Source: Bdellovibrionales bacterium (lineage in GTDB: Bacteria; Bdellovibrionota; Bdellovibrionia; Bdellovibrionales; UBA1609). Taken from it: a DNA stretch of 32,000 bases. Shown piece after piece: positions 1,134 to 17,876 of this stretch. The notes beneath the pieces are model-generated. The model was not told where the DNA came from, did no database searches, and saw nothing but the letters and a program-made list of their open reading frames with translations. The DNA is taken from NCBI GenBank assembly GCA_963692945.1, contig OY843585.1, forward strand, positions 330,001-362,000, given 5' to 3'. A program made the translations under genes and the position numbers. Every line of letters starts with the position of its first letter. Within the stretch, counting starts at the first letter, position 1.

Positions 1134-2288
1134 CTAAAAAAGAATTTCTAAAGCTTTTTGCCAATGGAGAGCACGGCAAGAACCAAAACGTCTTTCCAAA
1201 GGGTCTCTGGAGACAAGCCATTTTTTTGCCTTAGGATCAATGTCTTTAGCTAGAGATTCCAAGTTCTTTACATCTTCTTTCTTAACTCGATCTTTGGATT
1301 TGATCTCTATCAACAAAATATCTTTTGGACGCTGGATGATTAAATCAATTTCTACGTCATCTTTTGTTCTTAAATAGGAATAAGTCCAATCTTTTCTTTT
1401 ATAAGAAGCATTTTTTATAACTTCCAACAAGAACCAATGTTCAAAGGCTTCTCCAAAGGCTGAAGTTTGAGGAAGGAGTTCTACAGTTAAAGTTTTTGAA
1501 AGAGCCCTTTTTATTCCTGGATCAATGAAATAAAATTTAGGAGCTTGTTTCTGGGCTTTTCTGACAGAAAAATGAAAAGCTGGTAAAGTTATTCCTAACA
1601 AAGTATCTTCTAATATTTCAAAATAATTAGCAATTGTTACATCATCCACACCAGTATCTCTAGCTATTTTAGACTTGTTGATTATCTTTCCATTCATTTG
1701 AGCCACTATAGCTAAAAATTTACGGAAAGGTTTTAGTTTTCTAACCCACCGCTCTTGCTGTATCTCTTTTTCTATATAAGTTCCGACATAAGCATTTAAA
1801 TATTCTTTAGCACTTTCTTTATTTTTAGCTAAAGCCGCTTCGGGAAGAGTTCCCCATTCCAAAGCTGATTTGAGATTAAACTTTTTTTTCATTTCAAAAC
1901 TAGAAAACGGATACAGGTGATAAACCCAAGCTCTGCCAGCAAGTAAATTGACTCCTTTTTGTTTTAATTTACGGCTACTAGAACCAGTCAAAATAAACTG
2001 TCGTTTTTTCTTTTGTATTTGAGAATGGACAACATCTAAAATGCTTGGAAGTTTTTGCACCTCATCTATGATGACTATTTTGTTCTTGTTTTGTTTTGTA
2101 TTTATAAGATCTTCAAACCGACTAAAATCAAATAAAAACTCTTCAAATAAACTTACATTTAAGAGATCTATATAAAGAATATCTTTTTTTGAAAAAAGAC
2201 TTTGCAACAAAGTTGTTTTCCCTGTTCCTCTAGCTCCAAATAGAAAAAAACTATTGGTTTTAGAAAATTTGCAAGATCTCTGAATCAT
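1134..2288 (-). CDS. AAA+ ATPase of the AAA_14/DUF4143 type
   Basis: Walker A GARGTGKTTLL near the N-terminus and Walker B VIIDEVQKLP. The ~380 aa length and C-terminal region (FYFIDPG..., EIDLIIQ...LIEIKS) are typical of the stand-alone DUF4143 ATPases. Confidence 0.8.
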   Translation of the reverse strand: MIQRSCKFSKTNSFFLFGARGTGKTTLLQSLFSKKDILYIDLLNVSLFEEFLFDFSRFEDLINTKQNKNKIVIIDEVQKLPSILDVVHSQIQKKKRQFILTGSSSRKLKQKGVNLLAGRAWVYHLYPFSSFEMKKKFNLKSALEWGTLPEAALAKNKESAKEYLNAYVGTYIEKEIQQERWVRKLKPFRKFLAIVAQMNGKIINKSKIARDTGVDDVTIANYFEILEDTLLGITLPAFHFSVRKAQKQAPKFYFIDPGIKRALSKTLTVELLPQTSAFGEAFEHWFLLEVIKNASYKRKDWTYSYLRTKDDVEIDLIIQRPKDILLIEIKSKDRVKKEDVKNLESLAKDIDPKAKKWLVSRDPLERRFGSCRALHWQKALEILF

Positions 2289-2317
2289 ATTCAGAATTTT
2301 AACGCTATTCTCTGAAT
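2279..2317 (-). promoter_or_regulatory. Three copies of the heptamer TCTGAAT/ATTCAGA around the ATPase start codon (possible operator or alternative hairpins)
   Basis: TCTGAAT at 2279-2285, cat (the ATG on the minus strand) at 2286-2288, ATTCAGA at 2289-2295, and TCTGAAT again at 2311-2317. The central copy can pair with either flanking copy. Confidence 0.25.
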
Positions 2318-2344
2318 AGTGTCAAGACCTTAAACTGCTAAATT

Positions 2345-2611
2345 TTAGTTTTCATCAGAAGTTTCAGAGGGCTTCTTGATGGCTTGTTCAATCTTTGGTG
2401 GGTTGATCTTAACATCTTCCATTCCTAATTTATCCCTTACTTCATTCACAGCACCTGTTAGGGTTGTTAAACAATTTGTTGCTATAAAATTAACCGAATC
2501 AATTAAGTTCTTTTGATTCTCTTTTATTGGACCTAGCTGGTTCTTTAATTCCTTGCTAAATAGTCCCATTAGCTCATCTACATTAAAAAATTTCTTTCCT
2601 GTGTTACTCAT
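2345..2611 (-). CDS. Hypothetical small protein (88 aa)
   Basis: ATG-initiated ORF preceded by AAGGAG about 10 nt upstream (revcomp of 2622-2627). No recognisable motifs. Confidence 0.5.
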   Translation of the reverse strand: MSNTGKKFFNVDELMGLFSKELKNQLGPIKENQKNLIDSVNFIATNCLTTLTGAVNEVRDKLGMEDVKINPPKIEQAIKKPSETSDEN

Positions 2612-2855
2612 AAAACCACCAATGCTCCTTTTTTATTTGTTTTTTTAATATCACTAATATATCGGCTTGATCAAGACAAAACTTGAATGAAATTCCCCAG
2701 CTCATTACTTTAAGTATACTTGATTTTAAGTGCTTTTTCAACTATTTATTAGTGGTATAAATAGGTGTAGTTTAGTCACTCACCTAGAAAAATTCACTAC
2801 ACTGAGACGACAGAAAGACAAAAAAAATATTAGTAGCAAAGAGGATTCAATCTAT

Positions 2856-4277
2856 TTAAATTTTTTCTCTGGAAGAACTAAGAAGATGATTTAGTCCTTC
2901 TATAAATTGTTTGCTCTTTCTTCTTTCTTTGTAACGACGATTTACCATTAAAAAGATATTATCTTGAGCCACACCCACTTGGTCTTGTCCAACGGTGATA
3001 GATTTTTTAGATAAAAACTCTTTTCCATTTTTAAATTGGTCAAACAGACTTTTAAACTTTTTAAAAGAATTAGGGTTTCTATCTGGAGCGATACCTTCAT
3101 TTCCAATTGAGCCTGCTAAGGATCTTTCATCTTTTGGCAAAGCTTCTGCTTTTTTTGTAACAGAATCAGAACCAGTCTCTAGGTCTTCCCCTGCGTTTTC
3201 AACGGCTGCAAAAAATTTTGGATTTCGCTTTTTCAAACCATCCATAATTTTTTTGACAAGGGATTTGTTTTTGGGATTGAGATTATTTAAGTCTAAAGGT
3301 CTTTTTAAAATGTCCTTACAATCGGGACCTCCACAACCAATTAGGTTAGAGATGGCTGGGTTAAACCGAAGACTTCCATCTGGAGCGATTTTTACACACT
3401 CTTCTTTGCAACCAAGAATCTTACTGATTTTCTTTTGTTTATGTTTTGCTGAAAAGGTTTCATCCGCTAAAGTTGCAGATATTTGCTGTCCTTCAAGGCA
3501 TTCAGAAGTTGTGCATTTTATTTTAACATTTGAATTTGAGTTTAAAGTGGCACTGAGTTTGTTTTGTTTTTTTTTGAGTCTTAAATAATTCACTGCAAGA
3601 GCTCCCGCTGTAACTGCTGTTGCTATTCCAAATTTTGTAAGAGTTGCTCCTAATGCAGTTTTCTCAGCTGCTACCGCATCATAGGGTGGAGCCTCCGATG
3701 CACGACTGTTTGAACGCAAGAAGTTTGCTGCTGAGGTATTCTTTGCTGCTACTGCAAATGCTGCTTTCGCTTTCATAAAAAACACTTTTGAAGCCACTCC
3801 ATTGGCAGCTCCCCAAAGTAGAGTCTGTTTTTTTTGTTTTTGAACCTTGTTTTTTGCACTCTCTTGCTTTTGATTGGCAGCTGATGAAAGGGATTTTTTT
3901 TGTGAGGTTTCTTCAGCACCATTCACTTGGACCTGATTTTTAACATTAGCAGCCGAATCTTCAGCAGCATTCCAAGGTAAAAAACTAGCAGCGGTAGGGT
4001 ATTTTGGAATCTTAGGGATTGAAGCTTTTTGATTGAGAAGAAGTCTTTTTCTTTTCATTAAACGATCTAAATCGGCTTGTGGTGCTCTAAGTTGAGTTCT
4101 CGCACCTAATCTACAACTATGTGATCTACATCGGGCAAGTTGTTGTTGAATTCTATTAACATCTTGTCTTTTGTCTTCAATGCTTGAATCTAATAGGGCT
4201 AAAGCTCTTGCATGAGAGACAATGTCAGCTTGAGAAAGAGCTGGAAAAAAACAGCATATAAAAAATAAAACTTTCAT
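2856..4277 (-). CDS. Secreted protein, paralog C of the 2.8-7.3 kb cluster (473 aa)
   Basis: N-terminal signal peptide MKVLFFICCFFPALSQA. Shares several modules with the 4668-5843 product: a coiled-coil N-region with the CRSxxC motif, QKQESAK..V.KQK, a Gly/Ala-rich hydrophobic hairpin, a Cys-pair region, and a C-terminal box FKKF.SLFDQFK...TVG.D.VGV..DNIFL...RRY.ERRK.KQFIEGL. No SD is visible upstream of the ATG. Confidence 0.8.
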   Translation of the reverse strand: MKVLFFICCFFPALSQADIVSHARALALLDSSIEDKRQDVNRIQQQLARCRSHSCRLGARTQLRAPQADLDRLMKRKRLLLNQKASIPKIPKYPTAASFLPWNAAEDSAANVKNQVQVNGAEETSQKKSLSSAANQKQESAKNKVQKQKKQTLLWGAANGVASKVFFMKAKAAFAVAAKNTSAANFLRSNSRASEAPPYDAVAAEKTALGATLTKFGIATAVTAGALAVNYLRLKKKQNKLSATLNSNSNVKIKCTTSECLEGQQISATLADETFSAKHKQKKISKILGCKEECVKIAPDGSLRFNPAISNLIGCGGPDCKDILKRPLDLNNLNPKNKSLVKKIMDGLKKRNPKFFAAVENAGEDLETGSDSVTKKAEALPKDERSLAGSIGNEGIAPDRNPNSFKKFKSLFDQFKNGKEFLSKKSITVGQDQVGVAQDNIFLMVNRRYKERRKSKQFIEGLNHLLSSSREKI

Positions 4278-4389
4278 ATTTAATGGGGGGGGGGGTAAAA
4301 GTTTTTATTACAAAAATCTTTAGGATTTGACCTGTTATAAATTTTAGAATTTCAAATACAGTGTTTTTAAATTTTAGAATTTCATTCAT
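4225..4389 (-). CDS. Small ORF 1 of the tandem repeat array (54 codons in the present G-tract state); runs across the start of the 2856-4277 gene
   Basis: The ATG at 4389 overlaps the stop of small ORF 2 (TAATG). Encodes MNEILKFKNTVFEILKFITGQILKIFVIKTFTPPP..., reads through the C11 tract and stops 52 nt inside the downstream gene, out of frame. Confidence 0.3.
   Translation of the reverse strand: MNEILKFKNTVFEILKFITGQILKIFVIKTFTPPPIKYESFIFYMLFFSSSFSS
4285..4295. repeat. Homopolymeric G11 tract (C11 on the coding strand), 7 nt upstream of the ATG at 4277
   Basis: Direct read: taat-ggggggggggg-taaaa. The equivalent position in the other two repeat units has G5 (4419-4423, 4556-4560). Confidence 0.95.
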
Positions 4390-4526
4390 TAACATGTCTC
4401 CTTTAAATTTGTTGAGATGGGGGTGCAAGTTTTTATTACAAAAATCTTTAGAATTTGACCTGTTACAAATTTTAGAATTTTAAATACAATGTTTTTATTT
4501 ATTAAAAATTTTAGAATTTCATTCAT
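4389..4526 (-). CDS. Small ORF 2 of the tandem repeat array (45 codons)
   Basis: AGGAGG lies 8 nt upstream of the ATG. The ATG overlaps the stop of small ORF 3 (TAATG) and its own stop overlaps the ATG of small ORF 1. Encodes MNEILKFLINKNIVFKILKFVTGQILKIFVIKTCTPISTNLKETC. Confidence 0.3.
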   Translation of the reverse strand: MNEILKFLINKNIVFKILKFVTGQILKIFVIKTCTPISTNLKETC

Positions 4527-4654
4527 TAATAGGTCCTCCTTAAATTTGTTGAGATGGGGGTAAAAGTTTTTATTACAAAAATCTTTAGGATTTGACCTCT
4601 TACAAATTTTAGAATTTCAAATACAATGTTTTTATTTTTTAGAATTTCATTCAT
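4526..4654 (-). CDS. Small ORF 3 of the tandem repeat array (42 codons)
   Basis: AAAGGAG directly follows the TAA of the 4668-5843 gene, and the ATG at 4654 is 8 nt downstream of GGAG. Encodes MNEILKNKNIVFEILKFVRGQILKIFVIKTFTPISTNLRRTY. Confidence 0.3.
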   Translation of the reverse strand: MNEILKNKNIVFEILKFVRGQILKIFVIKTFTPISTNLRRTY

Positions 4655-4667
4655 TAACATGTCTCCT

Positions 4668-5843
4668 TTAAATTTGTTGTCTAGACGGTCTAGAATATTT
4701 TTTTAGTCCTTCTATAAATTGTTTGTTCTTTCTTCTTTCTTGGTAGCGACGATGCATCAATAAAAAGATATTGTCTTCAATCACCCCAACTTTATCTTTT
4801 CCTACAGTCACTGTTTTCCCAGATGTAGTGATTTTCTTTTTTTTGAATTGATCAAATAAACTTTGAAATTTTTTAAAAGTATCAGGGCTTTTCCTTTTTC
4901 TTTTTTTCTCACCTTCAATTTCAGATACAGACCCTATCAATCGGTTGCCGGGTTGGAAAGCTCCAAAACTTTTTGAAGGGTCTGAAGTAGAAGCTTCTTC
5001 TGTCTCTTCCTCTTCTTCATCAAAAAGATGTGGCTCTTTAGCTTTTATATCGTCCATCATTTTTTTAACTGCTTTTTGTTGGCTAGGATTTAAGTTCTTA
5101 AAAAGATCAGATCCTCGTTTAACTTTAATTCCGTTTTTACCATTAGGTGCTTCTGGTCCATTAAGAGAATCTAAAGAGGGACAATCTGCTGGTGGACAGC
5201 CTAGTATCTCGTTTAGTCCTCCTTGAAGCTCACCTGGTGAAGGGTTTGTTTCAATCAGGTCTGTTATTTTTTTACATATGGGTGTGTTGCAAGGATTTTC
5301 TGGTTCTGGATTTTCTTCATTTTGTAGAGAGTTGCTTCTATCACTAAATTTCTTTTCTTTATCCTGTATGGTTAGGTATTGTATTGCAAGAGCAGCAGCT
5401 AAACCACCCGTTGCCATGCCTGCCCATTCCCAATATGCAGCGGCAGGAGTGCCTGCTGCTTTTTTTGCCCTCATAAAAAACAAAGCAGATGCAATTCCAT
5501 TTATAACAGCCCAATCTTTTGTTTTTCTTTTTTGTTTTGTAACTTGATCTTTTGCACTTTCTTGTTTTTGAGCATCTATATTGTCAAGGGTGGCTTCCCT
5601 TTGATAATGATTTGATTCAGCTTCTTTAGCCTCTAACAAAGCTTCTTTTTGAGACAAGAGGACTTTTTCTGAAGCACAACTGCGACAATCTTGAAGTGTT
5701 GTTTTCAGTTCTCCTATTTCTTGTTTTAACTGCAAGATCTCTTGGCTTAAACCACTGGCTTTATCAGCATTAGAAGTTGTTGCTAGAGAAACAAATGAAA
5801 AAAGAAAGCAAAAAGCAAAAATAAAAACTCTAATCACTGACAA
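4668..5843 (-). CDS. Secreted protein, paralog B of the cluster (391 aa)
   Basis: Signal peptide ...FAFCFLFSFVSLATTSNA and the same module order as paralog C. The TTG start at 5843 sits 6 nt after AGAGGT and overlaps the end of the upstream gene by 10 nt. An in-frame GTG at 5837 gives a GTGA overlap as an alternative start. Confidence 0.8.
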   Translation of the reverse strand: MSVIRVFIFAFCFLFSFVSLATTSNADKASGLSQEILQLKQEIGELKTTLQDCRSCASEKVLLSQKEALLEAKEAESNHYQREATLDNIDAQKQESAKDQVTKQKRKTKDWAVINGIASALFFMRAKKAAGTPAAAYWEWAGMATGGLAAALAIQYLTIQDKEKKFSDRSNSLQNEENPEPENPCNTPICKKITDLIETNPSPGELQGGLNEILGCPPADCPSLDSLNGPEAPNGKNGIKVKRGSDLFKNLNPSQQKAVKKMMDDIKAKEPHLFDEEEEETEEASTSDPSKSFGAFQPGNRLIGSVSEIEGEKKRKRKSPDTFKKFQSLFDQFKKKKITTSGKTVTVGKDKVGVIEDNIFLLMHRRYQERRKNKQFIEGLKKYSRPSRQQI

Positions 5844-7318
5844 TTTTTACCTCTGTCTGTGCAATAAGATTTAATAAGAGTTGTCATATGCTCAAAAATA
5901 TTTTTATGTTTTCCATTAGCACTTGATAGTGTTCGTTTAGAACGAGAATCGCTAGAAGAACTGGCACTGCCAGATGTCTTTTTACCACTTCCCTTTCCTA
6001 AAGGGTCGTTTTCATGGTTGCTTGCTTCTCCCCCACCAGAGCGAACTCCTCCTGCAAAACTACCAAAACCTCTTCCATAAGAGCTTCTAGAAGATCTTGC
6101 TCCTTTTCCTAATCCCTCTTCATCATCGTCTGTATTTCCTGCTAAAGAACTTCCTGGTGCCAAAGGAGGAGAACCGGTTGGAGTTTTTGAATCTTTTTTA
6201 TCATTAGCTTCTGCTTCTGCTGTAGAGTCTTCTGTTCCACTTGATGGTGGGAGTTCATTACCAGGGTCTGGTGGTGTTTCTCCAGCACTGGGGTCGTCTA
6301 TGTTTGCAGTTAGACAATTACTTCCAGTACATGTTGATGGGTTTTCACCAAGGTCAAAAGTTGAACCACTACCTGGGACGGTAGGTCTATTAGGTGGTGG
6401 TGGAGTTTTATCTTTTTTGCCGTCGTTATCTTTTAAATGGTCAGCAATTGTATAATTTATAGCTGCATGTAAAAGATTCTCTAGACCTTGACCCATGGCA
6501 GCTGCTGCTTTTTCTCTTTCTTTTGAACATTTGGTTTTAAATTCTTCAGCACTTGTAATTTCTGATGAACATAACTTTTCAATGGCTTCATCTTTATTTT
6601 CAACTTCTTTTGTAATTTCTGATGATGTACAGGATTCTAAGGCTTGTTTTATTTCTTTATCTATTTCTTCTATATTTTGTACTAATCCTACAAAGTTTGT
6701 TTTTTTTGTTATCTTATCTATACAAGTTTCACAGGCTTTAATTTTTTCTGTACAGGCACTTTCACACTTACGAATGTCAGTGTAACACATACCTGATACA
6801 GCAGCATTTACACCAGCTAAACCAAGATTCAGATTACCTATTTTCTCAGTTACTTGTCCTCCATTACTTGGTTTATTAGCTGCTACAACAGCTCCGTACA
6901 TTGTTCCACCTCTTCCAAGGTATGTGGATGCTGTAGTCAACTTTCTTGCTGTACAAGTGTCTTCCACTTTCCCCGGAGCATCAGCATTACATTCTATTGG
7001 GTCACCATCACCTTCTCCTGCTTCAGCTTTATTAAATGGAGAGTAGGCCGTTAAAGGATTAGGACCAGTGTGCTGCCTCTTAGCACTATTAGGTACTTCT
7101 GTCTTAACAGAAGAGGAAGTTTGATAATAATTACAAAATTTATTTTCCTCACCACAGGCTTTCATTCTTTTTTGTTCTATTTGGAATGCTTTGACTGCAT
7201 CAACATTTTCAGATGAAGCTTGATGAGAGTTAAAAAGAAAGTTAGGATTAAACATAAACATAAACATAAACATAAACGATTTTAATAATTTAAAAATTAT
7301 TGATAAAAGATTTTTCAT
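5834..7318 (-). CDS. Secreted Cys-rich / low-complexity protein A, first gene of the cluster (494 aa)
   Basis: ATG preceded by AAGGATGGG. Hydrophobic N-terminus with an (FM)4 repeat, a Cys-rich central helical region (CESACTEKIKACETCIDK...), and a Pro/Gly/Ser-rich C-terminal half ending in NIFEHMTTLIKSYCTDRGKNCQ. Confidence 0.75.
   Translation of the reverse strand: MKNLLSIIFKLLKSFMFMFMFMFNPNFLFNSHQASSENVDAVKAFQIEQKRMKACGEENKFCNYYQTSSSVKTEVPNSAKRQHTGPNPLTAYSPFNKAEAGEGDGDPIECNADAPGKVEDTCTARKLTTASTYLGRGGTMYGAVVAANKPSNGGQVTEKIGNLNLGLAGVNAAVSGMCYTDIRKCESACTEKIKACETCIDKITKKTNFVGLVQNIEEIDKEIKQALESCTSSEITKEVENKDEAIEKLCSSEITSAEEFKTKCSKEREKAAAAMGQGLENLLHAAINYTIADHLKDNDGKKDKTPPPPNRPTVPGSGSTFDLGENPSTCTGSNCLTANIDDPSAGETPPDPGNELPPSSGTEDSTAEAEANDKKDSKTPTGSPPLAPGSSLAGNTDDDEEGLGKGARSSRSSYGRGFGSFAGGVRSGGGEASNHENDPLGKGSGKKTSGSASSSSDSRSKRTLSSANGKHKNIFEHMTTLIKSYCTDRGKNCQ
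7250..7278. repeat. Hexanucleotide repeat (AAACAT)4 plus a partial unit, encoding FMFMFMFMF in the signal peptide of protein A
   Basis: Direct read: aaacat x4 at 7250-7273, followed by aaacg. Confidence 0.95.
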
Positions 7319-7340
7319 ATTTTTCCCATCCTTAAAATTT

Positions 7341-7382
7341 CTTACTTCTTACTTCTTACTTCTTTCTTCTTACTTCTTTCTT
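7341..7382. repeat. Six tandem heptamers (CTTACTT/CTTTCTT) 23-64 nt upstream of the protein A start codon
   Basis: Direct read: cttactt x3 (7341-7361), ctttctt, cttactt, ctttctt. Confidence 0.9.
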
Positions 7383-7511
7383 ATTTCCCTATAAAACTTA
7401 TCGGAAATATAAGATTTATAAAAAAGTCGTTCTTTTATTTTAAGAGAAAAATCTTTTTCAGCCTAAATTTTTCATTTTTTTAGCTAAAAAGTGTCTCATT
7501 TTAATACATTT

Positions 7512-7816
7512 TAACAAAACTCTCGTTCAAAAAAGTATTTTCTACTCTTATTTTAACGAGCTTTTCATCACAAGAGGGGACACTCTTTTACAAAACTCTA
7601 GTGTTACCTTTCTTATTTTCTGACCTTTCATCGTAAAAGGGGACACTCTTCAAGCTCAAAAAGTAAAAAAGGTATTCCTAGAGAAAAACTTCTGTTTTTC
7701 GCACTTTTGTTTTTCGCATCACCGGTTTTCTGAGTTTTCATCGTAAGAGGGACACTCTTCAAATCTCGTTAAACTAAGAGTTACTTAATAGGCTTATATT
7801 TGAACTAGAGTTTTGT
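7512..7816. repeat. Cluster R1 of modular hairpin (MITE/REP-like) elements, three cores
   Basis: Termini are TAACAAAACTCTCGTTC (7512-) and TGAACTAGAGTTTTG (-7815), with an internal CAAAACTCTAG at 7591. Core copies TTTCATC(G/A)(T/C)AA.AGGG(G)ACACTCTT at 7563-7589, 7626-7653 and 7736-7762. Also holds the GGTATTCCTAGAGAAAAACTTCTGTTTTTCGCA module seen in R4 and R5. Confidence 0.85.
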
Positions 7817-7922
7817 AAAAACGACAGTATCCGAATTTACAAATAAAAAATGAAAAAAAGCCCTGCTTCTTGATAGTTTATTCATACTCTCTTTTTGCTT
7901 TATATAGATATTGAGAAAAACA

Positions 7923-8966
7923 ATGTCTAAAAAAGCTAAGCAAGTTTTAAATCTTAAAAATCAAACCTTAGAATTTAAAAAAGGAATTCATAAGAAAAAC
8001 ACAGCTTTTAGTCATGATAAGTTTTTTAAACTCTTCTATTCTAATCCTGACTTAGCTACAGAACTCTTTGAACTCATCTTTTCAAAAAAAGAAATGAAAG
8101 CTTATGATTGGAAAAAACTAAAAATAGAAAAAGATAGTTTTGAAGATAAAAGAGCTGATCTTATTTTCTCTGTTCCTTTTAAAAAAATTCCTAAAATGAA
8201 ACTCACCCTCTTTATTCTTCTAGAACATAAGTCCTATTATGATAAAAACCTCTTCCATCAACTTTTAGATTATCAAGTGTTAATTCACCGACATAATAAA
8301 GACCATCTTGGTTATTTACAACCTATAATTCCTGTTTTGTTTTATCATGGGAAACAAACTATGAAGTGGAAATCTTCTTTTTTAGAAGAGAATTTTAGAG
8401 ATTCTCTTTTTAAAATTCCTTTAGAAACAAGAAAAAACATGTTAAACTACAAGTTGAAAGTAATAGATGTGAATGCTCCAAGAGTCCAAAGAGCTGGTAA
8501 GGATAAAAGGTTTAAGGGGCGAGGGGCGTTGAGTTTATTGAGGGAAATATGGAGTTTAAAGAACCCAACAGATTCTAAGTTGCGTGAGATTGTTTTAGAT
8601 TTTAAGGAGTTGTTTAAAAGTATAGAAGGTCAACGAAAAGCGGATGTTTTGTTAGGAATTACTGAGTATCTGAAACAGAACACGGGGTTGAGTGCAAAGA
8701 ATTGGAAGAAGATTGAGGATTTGATGGTAAAAGAGGGATTTTTAAAAAGAGGAGGAACTATGATAAATATGAGAAAGATTATAAGAGAACGAGCTCTGGA
8801 AGAAGGACTGGAAGAAGGACAACGAAAAGGACGACAAGAGGGGCGACAAGAGTTTAAAAAAGTTATTTTGAATATGTTGAAGAAAAAACTTGATATCTCT
8901 TTGATTTCGGAAGTGACAGGTTTGTCTAAAGCAGAGATTAAAAAACTAAAAAACAGTCATAAGTGA
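7923..8966 (+). CDS. Rpn/YhgA-like recombination-promoting nuclease (PD-(D/E)XK, 'transposase_31' family), full-length form
   Basis: N-terminal HDKFFKLFYSNPDLATELFELIF, then RADLIFSV...LTLFILLEHKSYYDKNLFHQLLDY (a D...E-x-K nuclease motif in the YhgA-like arrangement), and a C-terminal VILNMLKKKLDISLISEVTGLSKAEIKKL helix-turn-helix-like tail. The ORF track starts at TTG 7911; the first ATG is at 7923. Confidence 0.8.
   Translation: MSKKAKQVLNLKNQTLEFKKGIHKKNTAFSHDKFFKLFYSNPDLATELFELIFSKKEMKAYDWKKLKIEKDSFEDKRADLIFSVPFKKIPKMKLTLFILLEHKSYYDKNLFHQLLDYQVLIHRHNKDHLGYLQPIIPVLFYHGKQTMKWKSSFLEENFRDSLFKIPLETRKNMLNYKLKVIDVNAPRVQRAGKDKRFKGRGALSLLREIWSLKNPTDSKLREIVLDFKELFKSIEGQRKADVLLGITEYLKQNTGLSAKNWKKIEDLMVKEGFLKRGGTMINMRKIIRERALEEGLEEGQRKGRQEGRQEFKKVILNMLKKKLDISLISEVTGLSKAEIKKLKNSHK
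8749..8762 (+). promoter_or_regulatory. Internal ribosome-binding site plus in-frame ATG inside the rpn-like gene
   Basis: AGAGGAGGAACT-ATG, with GGAGG at 8751-8755 and the ATG at 8760 in frame (residue 284). A second in-frame ATG lies at 8769. The same SD+ATG block heads the two downstream cassettes. Confidence 0.6.
8760..8966 (+). CDS. Candidate internally initiated C-terminal small protein (RpnS-like, 68 aa) nested in the rpn-like gene
   Basis: In-frame ATG with a strong SD. The product is MINMRKIIRERA + 19-aa linker (LEEGLEEGQRKGRQEGRQE) + conserved tail. The same architecture occurs as separate genes at 9013 and 9327. Confidence 0.5.
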   Translation: MINMRKIIRERALEEGLEEGQRKGRQEGRQEFKKVILNMLKKKLDISLISEVTGLSKAEIKKLKNSHK

Positions 8967-9012: not shown

Positions 9013-9261
9013 ATGATAAATATGAGAGAGATTGTAAGAGAACGAGCTCGGGAAGAAGGACGACAGGAAGAACGAAAAAAATGGTTTAAAAACGGACAAA
9101 CTAGGGGACGACAAGAAGGGTTTAAAAAAGGACGACGAGAGGGACGACGAGAAAAACGACAAGAGTTTAAAGAAGTTATTTTGAATATGTTGAAGAAAAA
9201 ACTTGATATCTCTTTGATTTCGGAAGTGACAGGTTTGTCTAAAGCAGAGATTAAAAAATAG
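9013..9261 (+). CDS. Free-standing RpnS-like C-terminal cassette, copy 2 (82 aa)
   Basis: Same AAAAGAGGAGGAACTATGATAAATATGAGA head as at 8745-8774. The 39-aa linker has 4-residue periodicity (REEG RQEE RKKW FKNG QTRG RQEG FKKG RREG RREK RQE). The 84-nt tail (9175-9258) is identical to 8862-8945. Confidence 0.6.
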   Translation: MINMREIVRERAREEGRQEERKKWFKNGQTRGRQEGFKKGRREGRREKRQEFKEVILNMLKKKLDISLISEVTGLSKAEIKK

Positions 9262-9326: not shown

Positions 9327-9662
9327 ATGAAAAAGATTATAAAAGAACAAGCTATGGATAAAGAGTTTCAAGAAACTCTTAAAAAAGGGTTTCAAACTTG
9401 GATAAAAGAGCGTCAAAAAGGGTTTGAAGAAGCACAACGAGAATGGTTTCCAGAAGAGTCTGAAAAAGGGTTTAAAAAAGGGTTTAAAAAAGGACGACAA
9501 GAAGGACAACAAAAAGGACGACAAGAAGGACAACAAAAGTTTCAAAAAGTTATTTTGAATATGTTGAAGAAAAAACTTGATATCTCTTTGATTTCGGAAG
9601 TGACAGGTTTGTCTAAAGCAGAGATTAAAAAACTAAAAAATAGTCATAGAACAAAACTCTAA
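9327..9662 (+). CDS. Free-standing RpnS-like C-terminal cassette, copy 3 (111 aa)
   Basis: Same head, but the first ATG is mutated to ATA, so the start is the second ATG. 62-aa linker and an identical 84-nt tail (9549-9632). The last codons ACA AAA CTC TAA lie in the terminus of repeat cluster R2. Confidence 0.6.
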   Translation: MKKIIKEQAMDKEFQETLKKGFQTWIKERQKGFEEAQREWFPEESEKGFKKGFKKGRQEGQQKGRQEGQQKFQKVILNMLKKKLDISLISEVTGLSKAEIKKLKNSHRTKL

Positions 9663-9742
9663 TTTTACTTTTTGAGCTTGAAGAGTGTCCCCTTTTACGA
9701 TGAAAAGCTCGTTAAAGTAAAAGTTCACACACGAGAGTTTTG
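9651..9742. repeat. Cluster R2: single hairpin element
   Basis: ACAAAACTCTAA...TTTTACTTTTTGAGC-[TTGAAGAGTGTCCCCTTTTACGATGAAA, 9678-9705]-GCTCGTTAAAGTAAAAGTTCACACACGAGAGTTTTG. The arms are self-complementary. Confidence 0.85.
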
Positions 9743-10991: not shown

Positions 10992-11088
10992 CAAAACTCT
11001 AGTTCTTCCTTTTTATTTTTAATATTTCTTTATAAAACGAGTATAGTTTTTGTATATAGTTTATGGTAAACTAAAAGAAGGAGAAATA

Positions 11089-11826
11089 ATGAGTAATAAA
11101 TCTACTGTTTTGGAGGCTAAAGCTTATTTTGCAGAAATTCGGAAACTCTTCAAAGAACGAAAAGAGTGCGATAAAGAAATGGCAGAGGAGCGAAGAAAAG
11201 AACGAGAAGAGCGAAAAAAAGAACGAAAAGAGTACGATAAAAAAATGGCAGAAGAGCGAAGAAAAGAACTAGAAAAAGAGCGAGAAGAGTACGATGAAAA
11301 AGCAGCAGAAGATATTAAAGAACTCCGAGCTAGCCAAAAAGCAACTGCCAAACAAATAAAAGAGACGGATCTAAAATTCAATGATTACTGGGATAATTGG
11401 GATAATTGGGATAACTGGGATAACTTGATGGAATCTTTATATAAACGAGATTTAGTGAAACTTCTAAAACAAAAAGGTATCAAAGTTGATCTGACTGCAA
11501 CAAATATAGTGAAAAAACATGGGGAACCACAATTTGAATTTGATATTTTAGCTTCCAATGGGGAGGAGCTCGTTGTTGTAGAAGTGACAACAACTTTGTA
11601 TATTAAAGAGTTGAATTATTTCATTAAGAAATTAAATAGAGTTACGGATTTTATGCCAGAATTTAAAGGTAAGAAAGTTTATGGAGCCGTTGCGTATTTA
11701 AAAGCCAATAAATCTTCTGACAAAAGAGCTGAGAAAGAGGGTTTGTTTGTGATAAGAGCGACAGAAAGCAGTTCCAATATTGTTAATAAGCAGGATTTTA
11801 AACCCAAATCTTTTTCAAAACTCTAG
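11089..11826 (+). CDS. DUF3782-like protein: N-terminal coiled coil + C-terminal PD-(D/E)XK-type domain, copy 1
   Basis: AAGGAG lies 6 nt before the ATG at 11089 (the ORF track's TTG 11050 extension is unlikely). FEFDILASNGEELVVVEVTTTL is a D...E-V-(K/T) motif, read as EVK in copy 2. The layout (coiled coil, then the short nuclease-like domain, ...KVYGAVAYL...GLFVI) matches DUF3782-type proteins as I remember them. The last codons TCA AAA CTC TAG lie in the element terminus. Confidence 0.55.
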   Translation: MSNKSTVLEAKAYFAEIRKLFKERKECDKEMAEERRKEREERKKERKEYDKKMAEERRKELEKEREEYDEKAAEDIKELRASQKATAKQIKETDLKFNDYWDNWDNWDNWDNLMESLYKRDLVKLLKQKGIKVDLTATNIVKKHGEPQFEFDILASNGEELVVVEVTTTLYIKELNYFIKKLNRVTDFMPEFKGKKVYGAVAYLKANKSSDKRAEKEGLFVIRATESSSNIVNKQDFKPKSFSKL

Positions 11827-16706: not shown

Positions 16707-17022
16707 TGTGTGAACTTTCATTTTCACGAGCTTTTCATCACAGGAGAGATGTTCTTCAAATCTCGTTAAAATGAAAGTTTTAACATAGAGAAAAACTTCT
16801 GTTTTTCGCAACTCTGGTTTTTGTATAGAAAAAACTTCGTTTTTTGCAGGGTTGTTTTTCGCACTTGAGCTTTCAGATTCAAAACTTTTTTAAAAACCAG
16901 TAGGTTTTCTCTCGTTCATTATAAGTAAGAATCTTTTTCTTTTTAGGAGTTTGAGGAGTGTCCCCTTTTACGACGAAAACCTCCTAAAAAGAAAAAGATA
17001 TTAGAACTGAACGAGAGTTTTG
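16695..17022. repeat. Cluster R5 of modular hairpin elements, two cores
   Basis: Unit 16695-16790 runs CAAAAACTCTAGTGTGTGAACTTTCATTTTCACGAG-[degenerate core 16733-16759]-ATCTCGTTAAAATGAAAGTTTTAACATAGAG. Next come the GAGAAAAACTTCTGTTTTTCGCA modules. The last unit runs CTCTCGTTCATT...CTTTTTCTTTTTAGGAG-[core 16951-16978]-CTCCTAAAAAGAAAAAGATATTAGAACTGAACGAGAGTTTTG. Confidence 0.85.
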
Positions 17023-17094
17023 TTAAATATTTTTTTATAAAACTTGGCATGGTTTTTGCATATAACTTATGGTAAACTAAAAAAAGGAGAAATA

Positions 17095-17715
17095 ATGAGT
17101 AATAAATCTACTGTTTTAGAGGCTAAAGCTTATTTTGCAGAAATTTGGAAACTTTTCAACGAGCAAAAAGAGTACGATAAACAAACGGCAATGGAGCGAA
17201 AAGAATATGAAAAAAAAGCAGCAGAAGATATTAAAGAGCTCCGAGCTCTCCAAAAAGCAACTGCCAAACAGCTAAAAGAGACTGATCTAAAATTCAATGG
17301 TCACTGGGGTAAGTTGATGGAGACTTTAGTTGAAGGAGATTTAGTGAAACTTCTAAAACAAAAAGGTATCCAAGTTGATCGGACGGCAACAAATATACTG
17401 AAAAAACACGGGGAACAACAATTTGAATTTGATATTTTAGCTTTCAATGGGGAAGAGATCGTTGTTGTAGAAGTGAAAACAACTTTAGATATTAAAGAGT
17501 TGAATTATTTTATTAAGAAATTAAATAGAGTTACGGATTTTATGCCAGAATTTAAAGGTAAGAAAGTTTATGGAGCCGTTGCGTATTTAAAAGCCAATCA
17601 ATCTTCTGACAAAAGAGCTGAGAAAGAGGGTTTGTTTGTGATCAGAGCGACAGGAAGCAGTTCCAGTATTATTAATAAGCAGGGGTTTAAACCCAAATTT
17701 TTTCAAAAACTCTAG
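17095..17715 (+). CDS. DUF3782-like coiled-coil + PD-(D/E)XK-type protein, copy 2
   Basis: Paralog of 11089-11826 with the same SD/ATG context. FEFDILAFNGEEIVVVEVKTTL gives an intact D...E-V-K. About ten mismatches over the last ~185 nt compared with copy 1 (by eye). Lacks the in-frame expansions of copy 1. Confidence 0.55.
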   Translation: MSNKSTVLEAKAYFAEIWKLFNEQKEYDKQTAMERKEYEKKAAEDIKELRALQKATAKQLKETDLKFNGHWGKLMETLVEGDLVKLLKQKGIQVDRTATNILKKHGEQQFEFDILAFNGEEIVVVEVKTTLDIKELNYFIKKLNRVTDFMPEFKGKKVYGAVAYLKANQSSDKRAEKEGLFVIRATGSSSSIINKQGFKPKFFQKL

Positions 17716-17876
17716 TTCTTCCCCTCCTTGTTTTCTGACCTTTCATCGTAAGAGGGACACTCTTCAAATCTCGTGAAAATAAAAATTCACACACTAGAGT
17801 TTTGTAAAAGAGTGTCCCCTTTTACGACGAAAATCTCCTAAAAAGAAAAAGATATTAGAACTGAACGAGAGTTTTG
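17704..17876. repeat. Cluster R6 of modular hairpin elements, two cores in opposite orientation
   Basis: CAAAAACTCTAGTTC..., core at 17741-17767, ATCTCGTGAAAATAAAAATTCACACACTAGAGTTTTG, inverted core at 17807-17833, then CTCCTAAAAAGAAAAAGATATTAGAACTGAACGAGAGTTTTG. It ends 1 nt from the stop of the 17878-20061 gene. Confidence 0.85.

Follow-up and report, generated by a model that had tools for sequence, protein, structure and literature searches.

Within a 32,000-nt stretch of contig OY843585.1 from a Bdellovibrionales bacterium (assembly GCA_963692945.1), the whole of which is here called the window, the minus strand carries a putative operon. Its first gene encodes a protein of 494 amino acids (5834..7318) and is followed by gene B (389 amino acids, P0002, 4668..5837), by three small open reading frames (ORFs) and by gene C (473 amino acids, P0001, 2856..4277), a paralogue of gene B. 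The small ORFs form a tandem array (4278..4680), and the one nearest to gene C, small ORF 1, has as its last codons a run of 11 C residues specifying Pro-Pro-Pro (4285..4295, minus strand; G11 on the plus strand). An earlier note on this DNA had proposed that the tract is a three-state translational switch acting on gene C, and it is this tract, a credible candidate for a contingency locus and a variant of known simple-repeat phase variation, that is considered here.

The plus strand at 4275-4302 reads CAT ATTTAAT GGGGGGGGGGG TAAAAGT, with G11 at 4285-4295. On the coding strand the junction is ACTTTTA-C11-ATTAAAT-ATG, the ATG occupying 4277-4275, and the 7-nt spacer between tract and start codon, ATTAAAT (4278..4284), has inside it the TAA that serves as small-ORF stop in the C12/C9 frame. 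The sequence, read directly, places the tract where the earlier note had put it. How exceptional is such a run in a genome of 33% G+C? No other G/C run in the window is longer than 5, and A/T runs reach 9 at most. All four windows of eight consecutive G residues lie within it, with 0.10 expected from shuffles, and a first-order Markov model predicts 0.002 runs of at least 11 per window, or about 0.1 per 1.56 Mb. Relative to base composition the tract is over-represented in the 32 kb, and the suspicion that so long a G run is very unlikely by chance was well founded. At 11 nt it also exceeds the poly-G/C cut-off of 7-8 or more for contingency loci: at least 7 G/C is accepted for calling phase-variable loci, and in Campylobacter jejuni NCTC 11168 every G/C tract of at least 8 varied (PMC6321876).

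Both paralogous units of the array have C5 at the aligned position, as had been observed before, versus C11 in unit 1. This is one point in favour of a neutral origin, in which the tract grew by slippage from C5 at a junction formed by a recent duplication and mutates with nothing depending on it, gene C being translated alone from an unstructured A/U-rich start and the small ORFs being untranslated or irrelevant. Taken as a whole we find that account possible, if on balance unlikely. Besides the C5 of the sister units it draws on the location in a lineage-specific, rearranged insertion of about 3.6 kb absent from relatives, on small ORFs that have no homologues and give no sign of selection, and on a weakly structured gene C start in a region where many genes lack a Shine-Dalgarno (SD) sequence. 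It is harder to reconcile with G/C runs elsewhere stopping at 5, an 11-mer being difficult to keep without recent expansion or selection; with small-ORF SD sequences that are among the strongest in the window, at optimal spacing, when that of gene C is the weakest; and with the distinct, interpretable outcome in each of the three frames.

The assembled length deserves scrutiny of its own. The genome assembly is a single contig of 1,561,448 bp, which suggests long reads, and long-read consensus is hardest at homopolymers of this length. If the count were off by one and the true tract were C12, there would be plain, fixed coupling (TAA AT ATG) and no switching, and C12 does give the native geometry of the family, with a stop 2-3 nt before the start. 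Such an error seems improbable to us. The checked genes of the window are intact, with lengths as in their orthologues, despite 27 A/T runs of 8-9 nt, and homopolymer polishing therefore looks good; a C12 tract would, besides, still be hypermutable.

The consequences of tract length for reading frame were followed in silico, by varying the tract between C5 and C14 and reading out the frames of small ORF 1 and gene C. As sequenced, and likewise with C8 or C5, small ORF 1 crosses the gene C ATG out of frame, reading ...TFTPPPIKYESF... in the C11 state, and stops at a TGA at 4227-4225, the overlap with gene C being 53 nt including the stop codon. With C12, C9 or C6 it ends CAT TAA, 2 nt 5' of the gene C ATG. 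With C10, C13 or C7 it is fused in frame to gene C, and for C10 and C13 the predicted product has an N-terminal extension of 36-37 residues. One-unit changes thus alter the reading frame and cycle through three outcomes, and what had been said of the variants with 10, 11 and 12 C, namely fusion, an out-of-frame passage over the ATG with a stop inside gene C, and termination just before the start, is reproduced by the edited sequences. As to the further claim that fusion buries the signal peptide, the extension is there, while the cleavage site is retained and burial is only what might follow. In length, rarity and frame consequence the tract has the features by which contingency loci are recognized at the level of sequence.

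In all frames the tract encodes Pro-Pro-Pro, a ribosome-pausing motif, and this raises the matter of slippage in decoding or transcription in place of slippage in DNA. A tRNA-Pro shifting +1 or -1 on overlapping CCC-C, or an RNA polymerase that slips, would let every cell make all three products, a +1 shift giving the fusion and a -1 shift the stop just before the ATG. Natural frameshifting at CCC-C is low when tRNA modification and elongation factor P (EF-P) are intact, and there is no stimulatory structure 3' of the tract. In favour of the ribosomal version, CCC-C is a classic +1-slippery tRNA-Pro site, restrained by m1G37 and EF-P (PMC4519876, PMC7577736), and Pro-Pro-Pro is reported to pause ribosomes, with EF-P relieving the pause (bioRxiv 10.1101/2024.08.03.606492). 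Against the polymerase version stands the documentation of transcriptional slippage mainly for A/T runs (PMC3711429). Taken together, the versions make an improbable explanation.

What is the setting in which these frames would matter? The array spans the 390 nt separating the paralogous genes B and C and comprises three units, of roughly 128-137 bp and with 86-91% similarity to one another, each with one small ORF. Every unit includes a copy of the last 12-17 nt or so of gene B (CAACAAATTTAA), and then, in order, an SD sequence (AGGAG or AGGAGG), an 8-nt spacer and the ATG of an ORF of 42-54 codons (MNEILKF...IKTFTP...). Small ORF 3 (4526..4654, 42 amino acids from a conserved second ATG) has its SD, AGGAG, straight after the gene B stop, and its own stop overlaps the ATG of small ORF 2 as TAATG. 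Small ORF 2 (4389..4526, 45 amino acids, P0006) has the SD AGGAGG, and its TAA stop overlaps in the same way the ATG of small ORF 1 (4225..4389, 54 amino acids in the C11 state, P0007), which is preceded by AGGAG at 4402-4398 with 8 nt to its ATG at 4389. From small ORF 3 through 2 to 1, stop and start are in each case as close as coupling would have them. The start ATG is conserved across units, the sole indel inside the small ORFs is of 9 nt and keeps the frame, and the deposited annotation calls two of the three as genes (P0006 and P0007). From features of this kind the small ORFs are probably translated.

Other identities for the array were tried and set aside. It is not a dispersed or mobile repeat: the window has just three occurrences of its unit core, and searches of species-representative genomes, plasmids and phages gave none. 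Nor is it a structured RNA, the intergenic array folding no better than shuffles (z = 0.12), and no Rfam match was found in 2500-8000, even at a permissive threshold. Each unit has sub-repeats (4313-4383, 4440-4520 and 4577-4648), GAAATTCTAAAAT twice and a related third, CAAATCCTAAAGAT, recognized by eye; in units 1 and 3 the spacing of the exact copies is some 30 nt, and the three sub-repeats encode EILKF/EILKF/QILKI. As DNA, they might equally serve as phased sites for protein binding.

The repeat units are also enriched in promoter-like hexamer pairs, 9 versus 3.7 expected, and a length-variable tract might act in transcription, by spacing promoter elements or by offering a binding site, in the manner of the porA, opc and fim promoters. 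We give this very little credence. In a scan for consensus matches no predicted hexamer pair flanks the tract, which in that scan leaves it outside the definition of a promoter spacer of the porA/opc/fim type; the tract ends 7 nt before the ATG, too short a distance for a -10 element plus leader, and it lies inside an SD-led ORF.

For 20 start codons in the window, the preceding 20 nt were scored for duplex energy against the anti-SD sequence. Small ORFs 1-3, at -8.7 to -12.1 kcal/mol, rank 2nd, 4th and 5th of the 20, and gene C, at +1.7 kcal/mol, is the weakest of all, which is the weak or absent SD characteristic of a coupled downstream gene. Small ORF 1 thus has its SD at the ideal spacing of 8 nt and gene C has none. 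The N-terminus of gene C aligns with those of its homologues, all of which open at a signal-peptide-like segment. This alignment identifies the ATG at 4277 as the native start and the fusion as not native; that the fusion might be the native form was considered and ruled out on the same ground. Coupling appears to be at home in this family. Gene B begins, as annotated, at a GTG that shares bases with the TGA ending the 494-amino-acid gene (GTGA), and in L001, a syntenic metagenome contig from Bdellovibrionales, the single orthologue has its start 3 nt past the TGA that closes the homologous gene upstream of it, so the arrangement of sequences indicates that members of the gene C family are natively started by coupling to an upstream ORF. 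No terminator-like site was found between genes B and C. Experiments in Escherichia coli and Haloferax show that termination-reinitiation works only where the two genes overlap or lie very close together, a gap of about 20 nt being enough to all but abolish it (PMC10666635). For small ORF 1 and gene C the stop is near the start only in the hypothetical C12/C9 state (+2 nt); in the C11 state that was sequenced it lies 53 nt inside gene C.

Drawing these strands together, the SD contrast, the native start, the coupling in the family and the lack of a terminator lead us to infer that C12 would be the coupled, high state, C11 the occluded, low state and C10 the fusion, with gene C translation dependent on the small ORFs. 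In the mechanism proposed, small ORF 1, the last of three SD-bearing small ORFs chained by TAATG, is translated, and the C11 homopolymer at its 3' end is prone to slippage. Since the tract sets the frame of small ORF 1, its length modulo 3 would decide the fate of small ORF 1 ribosomes at the gene C start. With C12 or C9 they would terminate 2 nt upstream, in a coupling geometry, and the highest output of the native, signal-peptide-first protein is predicted. With C11, the sequenced length, or C8 they would cross the ATG and stop 53 nt inside, too far for re-initiation, leaving the start occluded and output predictably low. With C10 or C13 they would enter gene C in frame and yield the protein with the 36-37-residue N-terminal extension. 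Insertion or deletion of a single base by slipped-strand mispairing would make the passage among coupled, occluded and fused states heritable and reversible. The putative operon also has a heptamer and a hexamer repeat, described below, and these raise the prior for a switch. We put the probability that the tract is a length-dependent translational switch on gene C at roughly 40%. The anatomy and the frame logic of the three-state switch put forward in the earlier note stand, and are strengthened by the SD contrast, by native coupling and by the nearby repeats; its function has the rank of a candidate.

Several considerations weigh against such a switch. A one-base misassembly could have occurred in a homopolymer of 11, and variation in tract length is something we infer and did not see. 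All 10 proteins tested against a collection of 15 billion proteins are singletons at 90% identity, with no relative at or above that level; look-ups of exact proteins returned no contigs; no database protein matches another tract-length state; the tandem-unit core has no match in species-representative genomes, a collection that does not include this genome; and five metagenome matches amount to a chance 23-mer inside unrelated coding sequence. There is one long G/C tract in the 32 kb, and nothing in the window points to a ‘phasome’ spanning the genome. No homologue of the small ORFs was found beyond the locus; the substitutions between their copies are for the most part non-synonymous, and their number is too small to demonstrate purifying selection. 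Around its start gene C is rich in A/U and has only weak structure (-4.5 kcal/mol, z -2.0, in a 51-nt fold; not significant in a 76-nt context), and about half of the genes here have no clear SD; given such a start and so many SD-less genes, SD-independent initiation could leave gene C largely insensitive to the frame of small ORF 1. The one structure of note, a 10-bp A/U stem joining bases just 5' of the tract to the first gene C codons, is weak and is gone in the longer context.

A more elaborate version of the length-dependent switch can be entertained, though only as a long shot. In it the tract, acting on an exported protein of a bacterium with a small genome, would have two inputs: length modulo 3 would select heritably among coupling, occlusion and fusion by way of a dedicated upstream small ORF, and length divided by 3 would fix how many prolines follow one another. 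If a ribosome paused on Pro-Pro-Pro, with its P site 13 nt 5' of the gene C ATG, it would cover the start, and pausing over the start would tie gene C output to EF-P or to translation status. The operon, with its heptamer and hexamer, would on this version be the first repeat-driven contingency operon to be described in Bdellovibrionota.

Among known systems, the simpler switch would work most like the licA-type switches and the C-terminal phase variation of Helicobacter canadensis. In licA (lic1) of Haemophilus influenzae, CAAT repeats govern the register in which start codons upstream stand to the ORF (PMC2212159). Common to both are a repeat near the 5' end and three frame states, one of which brings an upstream ATG in frame with the body of the gene. 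The licA repeat, however, is a tetranucleotide inside the regulated ORF and downstream of all its starts, whereas here there is a mononucleotide run and the native ATG of gene C lies 3' of it, which sets the tract apart from in-ORF switches of the licA type; the tract is in a separate upstream small ORF and its proposed effect is on coupling and occlusion, not on ORF integrity. In H. canadensis a tract change would merge HCAN_0660 and HCAN_0661 (PMC2823697), and as in our case a poly-G/C run at the 3' end of an upstream coding sequence alters its tail, with one frame fusing the next coding sequence. There the ranges of tract length were seen in sequencing reads, whereas here one assembled length is at hand. 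Moreover no translational-coupling role was proposed for H. canadensis, and here the upstream ORF is a peptide of 36-54 amino acids in a tandem array.

The tlpB/RepG type shares with the tract a homopolymer just upstream of a coding start and, as proposed here, a length-dependent post-transcriptional effect. Its repeat, by contrast, is an untranslated poly-G that is bound by the C/U-rich loop of a small RNA and gives graded control, whereas ours is poly-C within an SD-led small ORF, and of a small RNA partner there was no sign in the form of an Rfam family match in 2500-8000. Ordinary termination-reinitiation pairs overlap as ATGA or TAATG (PMC10666635; also PMC6728339). The TAATG of the small-ORF chain and the GTGA of gene B are of this kind, and the C12 state would give a distance of +2 to an SD-less downstream start; unlike such pairs, the C11 state has a 53-nt out-of-frame overlap, outside the range of coupling, and a mutable tract would set the distance.

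The N-terminus of gene C, MKVLFFICCFFPALSQA followed by D, looks like a Sec signal peptide, and from it the product is probably exported. Neither Pfam nor NCBIfam has a family for gene C. When 1.84 billion representatives were searched with a profile, 190 relatives came up at E <= 0.001, mostly of 300-560 amino acids, which share the C-terminal motif GxDQVGVxQDNIFLMVHRRYQERR, conserved in gene C in the form GxDQVGVxQDNIFLMVxRRYxERR, and the genomic matches are to metagenome-assembled genomes (MAGs) of Bdellovibrionales, Bdellovibrionaceae and Pseudobdellovibrionaceae. The AlphaFold model consists mostly of long helices with a mean predicted local distance difference test (pLDDT) score of 65, and has no significant fold match in the PDB (best E 0.7). 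In another Bdellovibrionales MAG contig (L008), T7G9 stands at the contig start (1-16), inside the Gly/Pro-rich coding region of a gene C homologue; it could have arisen as an artefact of the contig end, or it could be a second homopolymer tied to the gene C family.

Two further repeats lie at the head of the putative operon, both on the minus strand. A heptamer, GTAAGAA/GAAAGAA repeated about 6.3 times (7339..7382), is in the leader and ends just 5' of the SD of the 494-amino-acid gene (AAGGATGGG). By analogy it is a second candidate variable repeat: a heptamer repeat within H. influenzae hmw1A's 5' untranslated region controls expression (PMC12721329), and here too a 7-nt repeat is in the leader, that of the first gene of the operon, though its sequence differs from the hmw1A heptamer and is purine-rich on the mRNA. 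The hexamer, TGTTTA repeated 4.8 times (7249..7277), is in frame at the 5' end of the 494-amino-acid gene and encodes (FM)n, SFMFMFMFMFNPN. It provides several in-frame ATGs in the hydrophobic N-terminus of that protein.

Comparison with relatives gives some idea of how the locus came about. In L001 and L008 a gene for 403 amino acids, in L001 the homologue of the 494-amino-acid gene preceding the orthologue, is followed by one for 390 amino acids that faces a convergent NTP-transferase-like gene. Here about 3.6 kb (1134-4667), absent from both contigs, is inserted between gene B and the NTP-transferase-like gene and comprises the small-ORF array, gene C, an 88-residue ORF (2345..2611) and a DUF4143/AAA_14 ATPase gene (1134..2288). 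The YfiO-Pribosyltran block beside the insert is inverted relative to L001, and with the insert it makes the region a rearrangement hot spot. Genes C and B show 76-82% DNA identity at their 3' ends, with the offset constant at 1812 nt (2855-3078 versus 4667-4890), and the proteins are 31-39% identical overall. High 3' identity with divergent proteins fits an old tandem duplication with later 3' homogenisation or constraint, and the 3' identity suggests gene conversion or strong constraint on the C-terminal motif. Since the locus is a lineage-specific insertion, the tract is at the proximal junction of a lineage-specific duplication, a position that fits a selected switch and a neutral scar equally well.

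Repeats of other kinds are scattered more widely through the window. A dispersed intergenic motif of about 25 nt, AGAGTGTCCCCTTTTACGATGAAAA, has five matches with at most 3 mismatches, against 0 expected, at 7562-7586 and 7625-7649 on the minus strand and 9682-9706, 16955-16979 and 17809-17833 on the plus strand; a further minus-strand copy, recognized by eye only, is at approximately 7735-7760. Copies in opposite orientation bracket the region of a YhgA-like (Transposase_31) gene and direct copies bracket a gene for an Hjc-like nuclease (17044..17715), and the motif may be an element like the repetitive extragenic palindromic sequences or the miniature inverted-repeat transposable elements. 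In-frame tandem repeats of 21 nt, 12/24 nt and 36 nt (11152-11312 and 9056-9153, 9463-9538) encode low-complexity stretches rich in K, E and D; they sit in a gene for an Hjc-like nuclease (11050..11826) and in the short ORFs that lie between transposase and yfiO genes.

In the literature searched there is no report of repeat-mediated phase variation in Bdellovibrionota. Should the tract at the gene C start not vary, it would be a curiosity at a duplication junction. If instead it does vary and does control gene C, repeat-mediated phase variation would extend to this phylum, and with a twist, a mutable tract acting via the frame of an upstream small ORF, through coupling, occlusion or fusion, and leaving the regulated gene unbroken. 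An uncharacterised exported family, with some 190 cluster representatives, would then be a variable surface or secreted factor, possibly one for interaction with prey or host.

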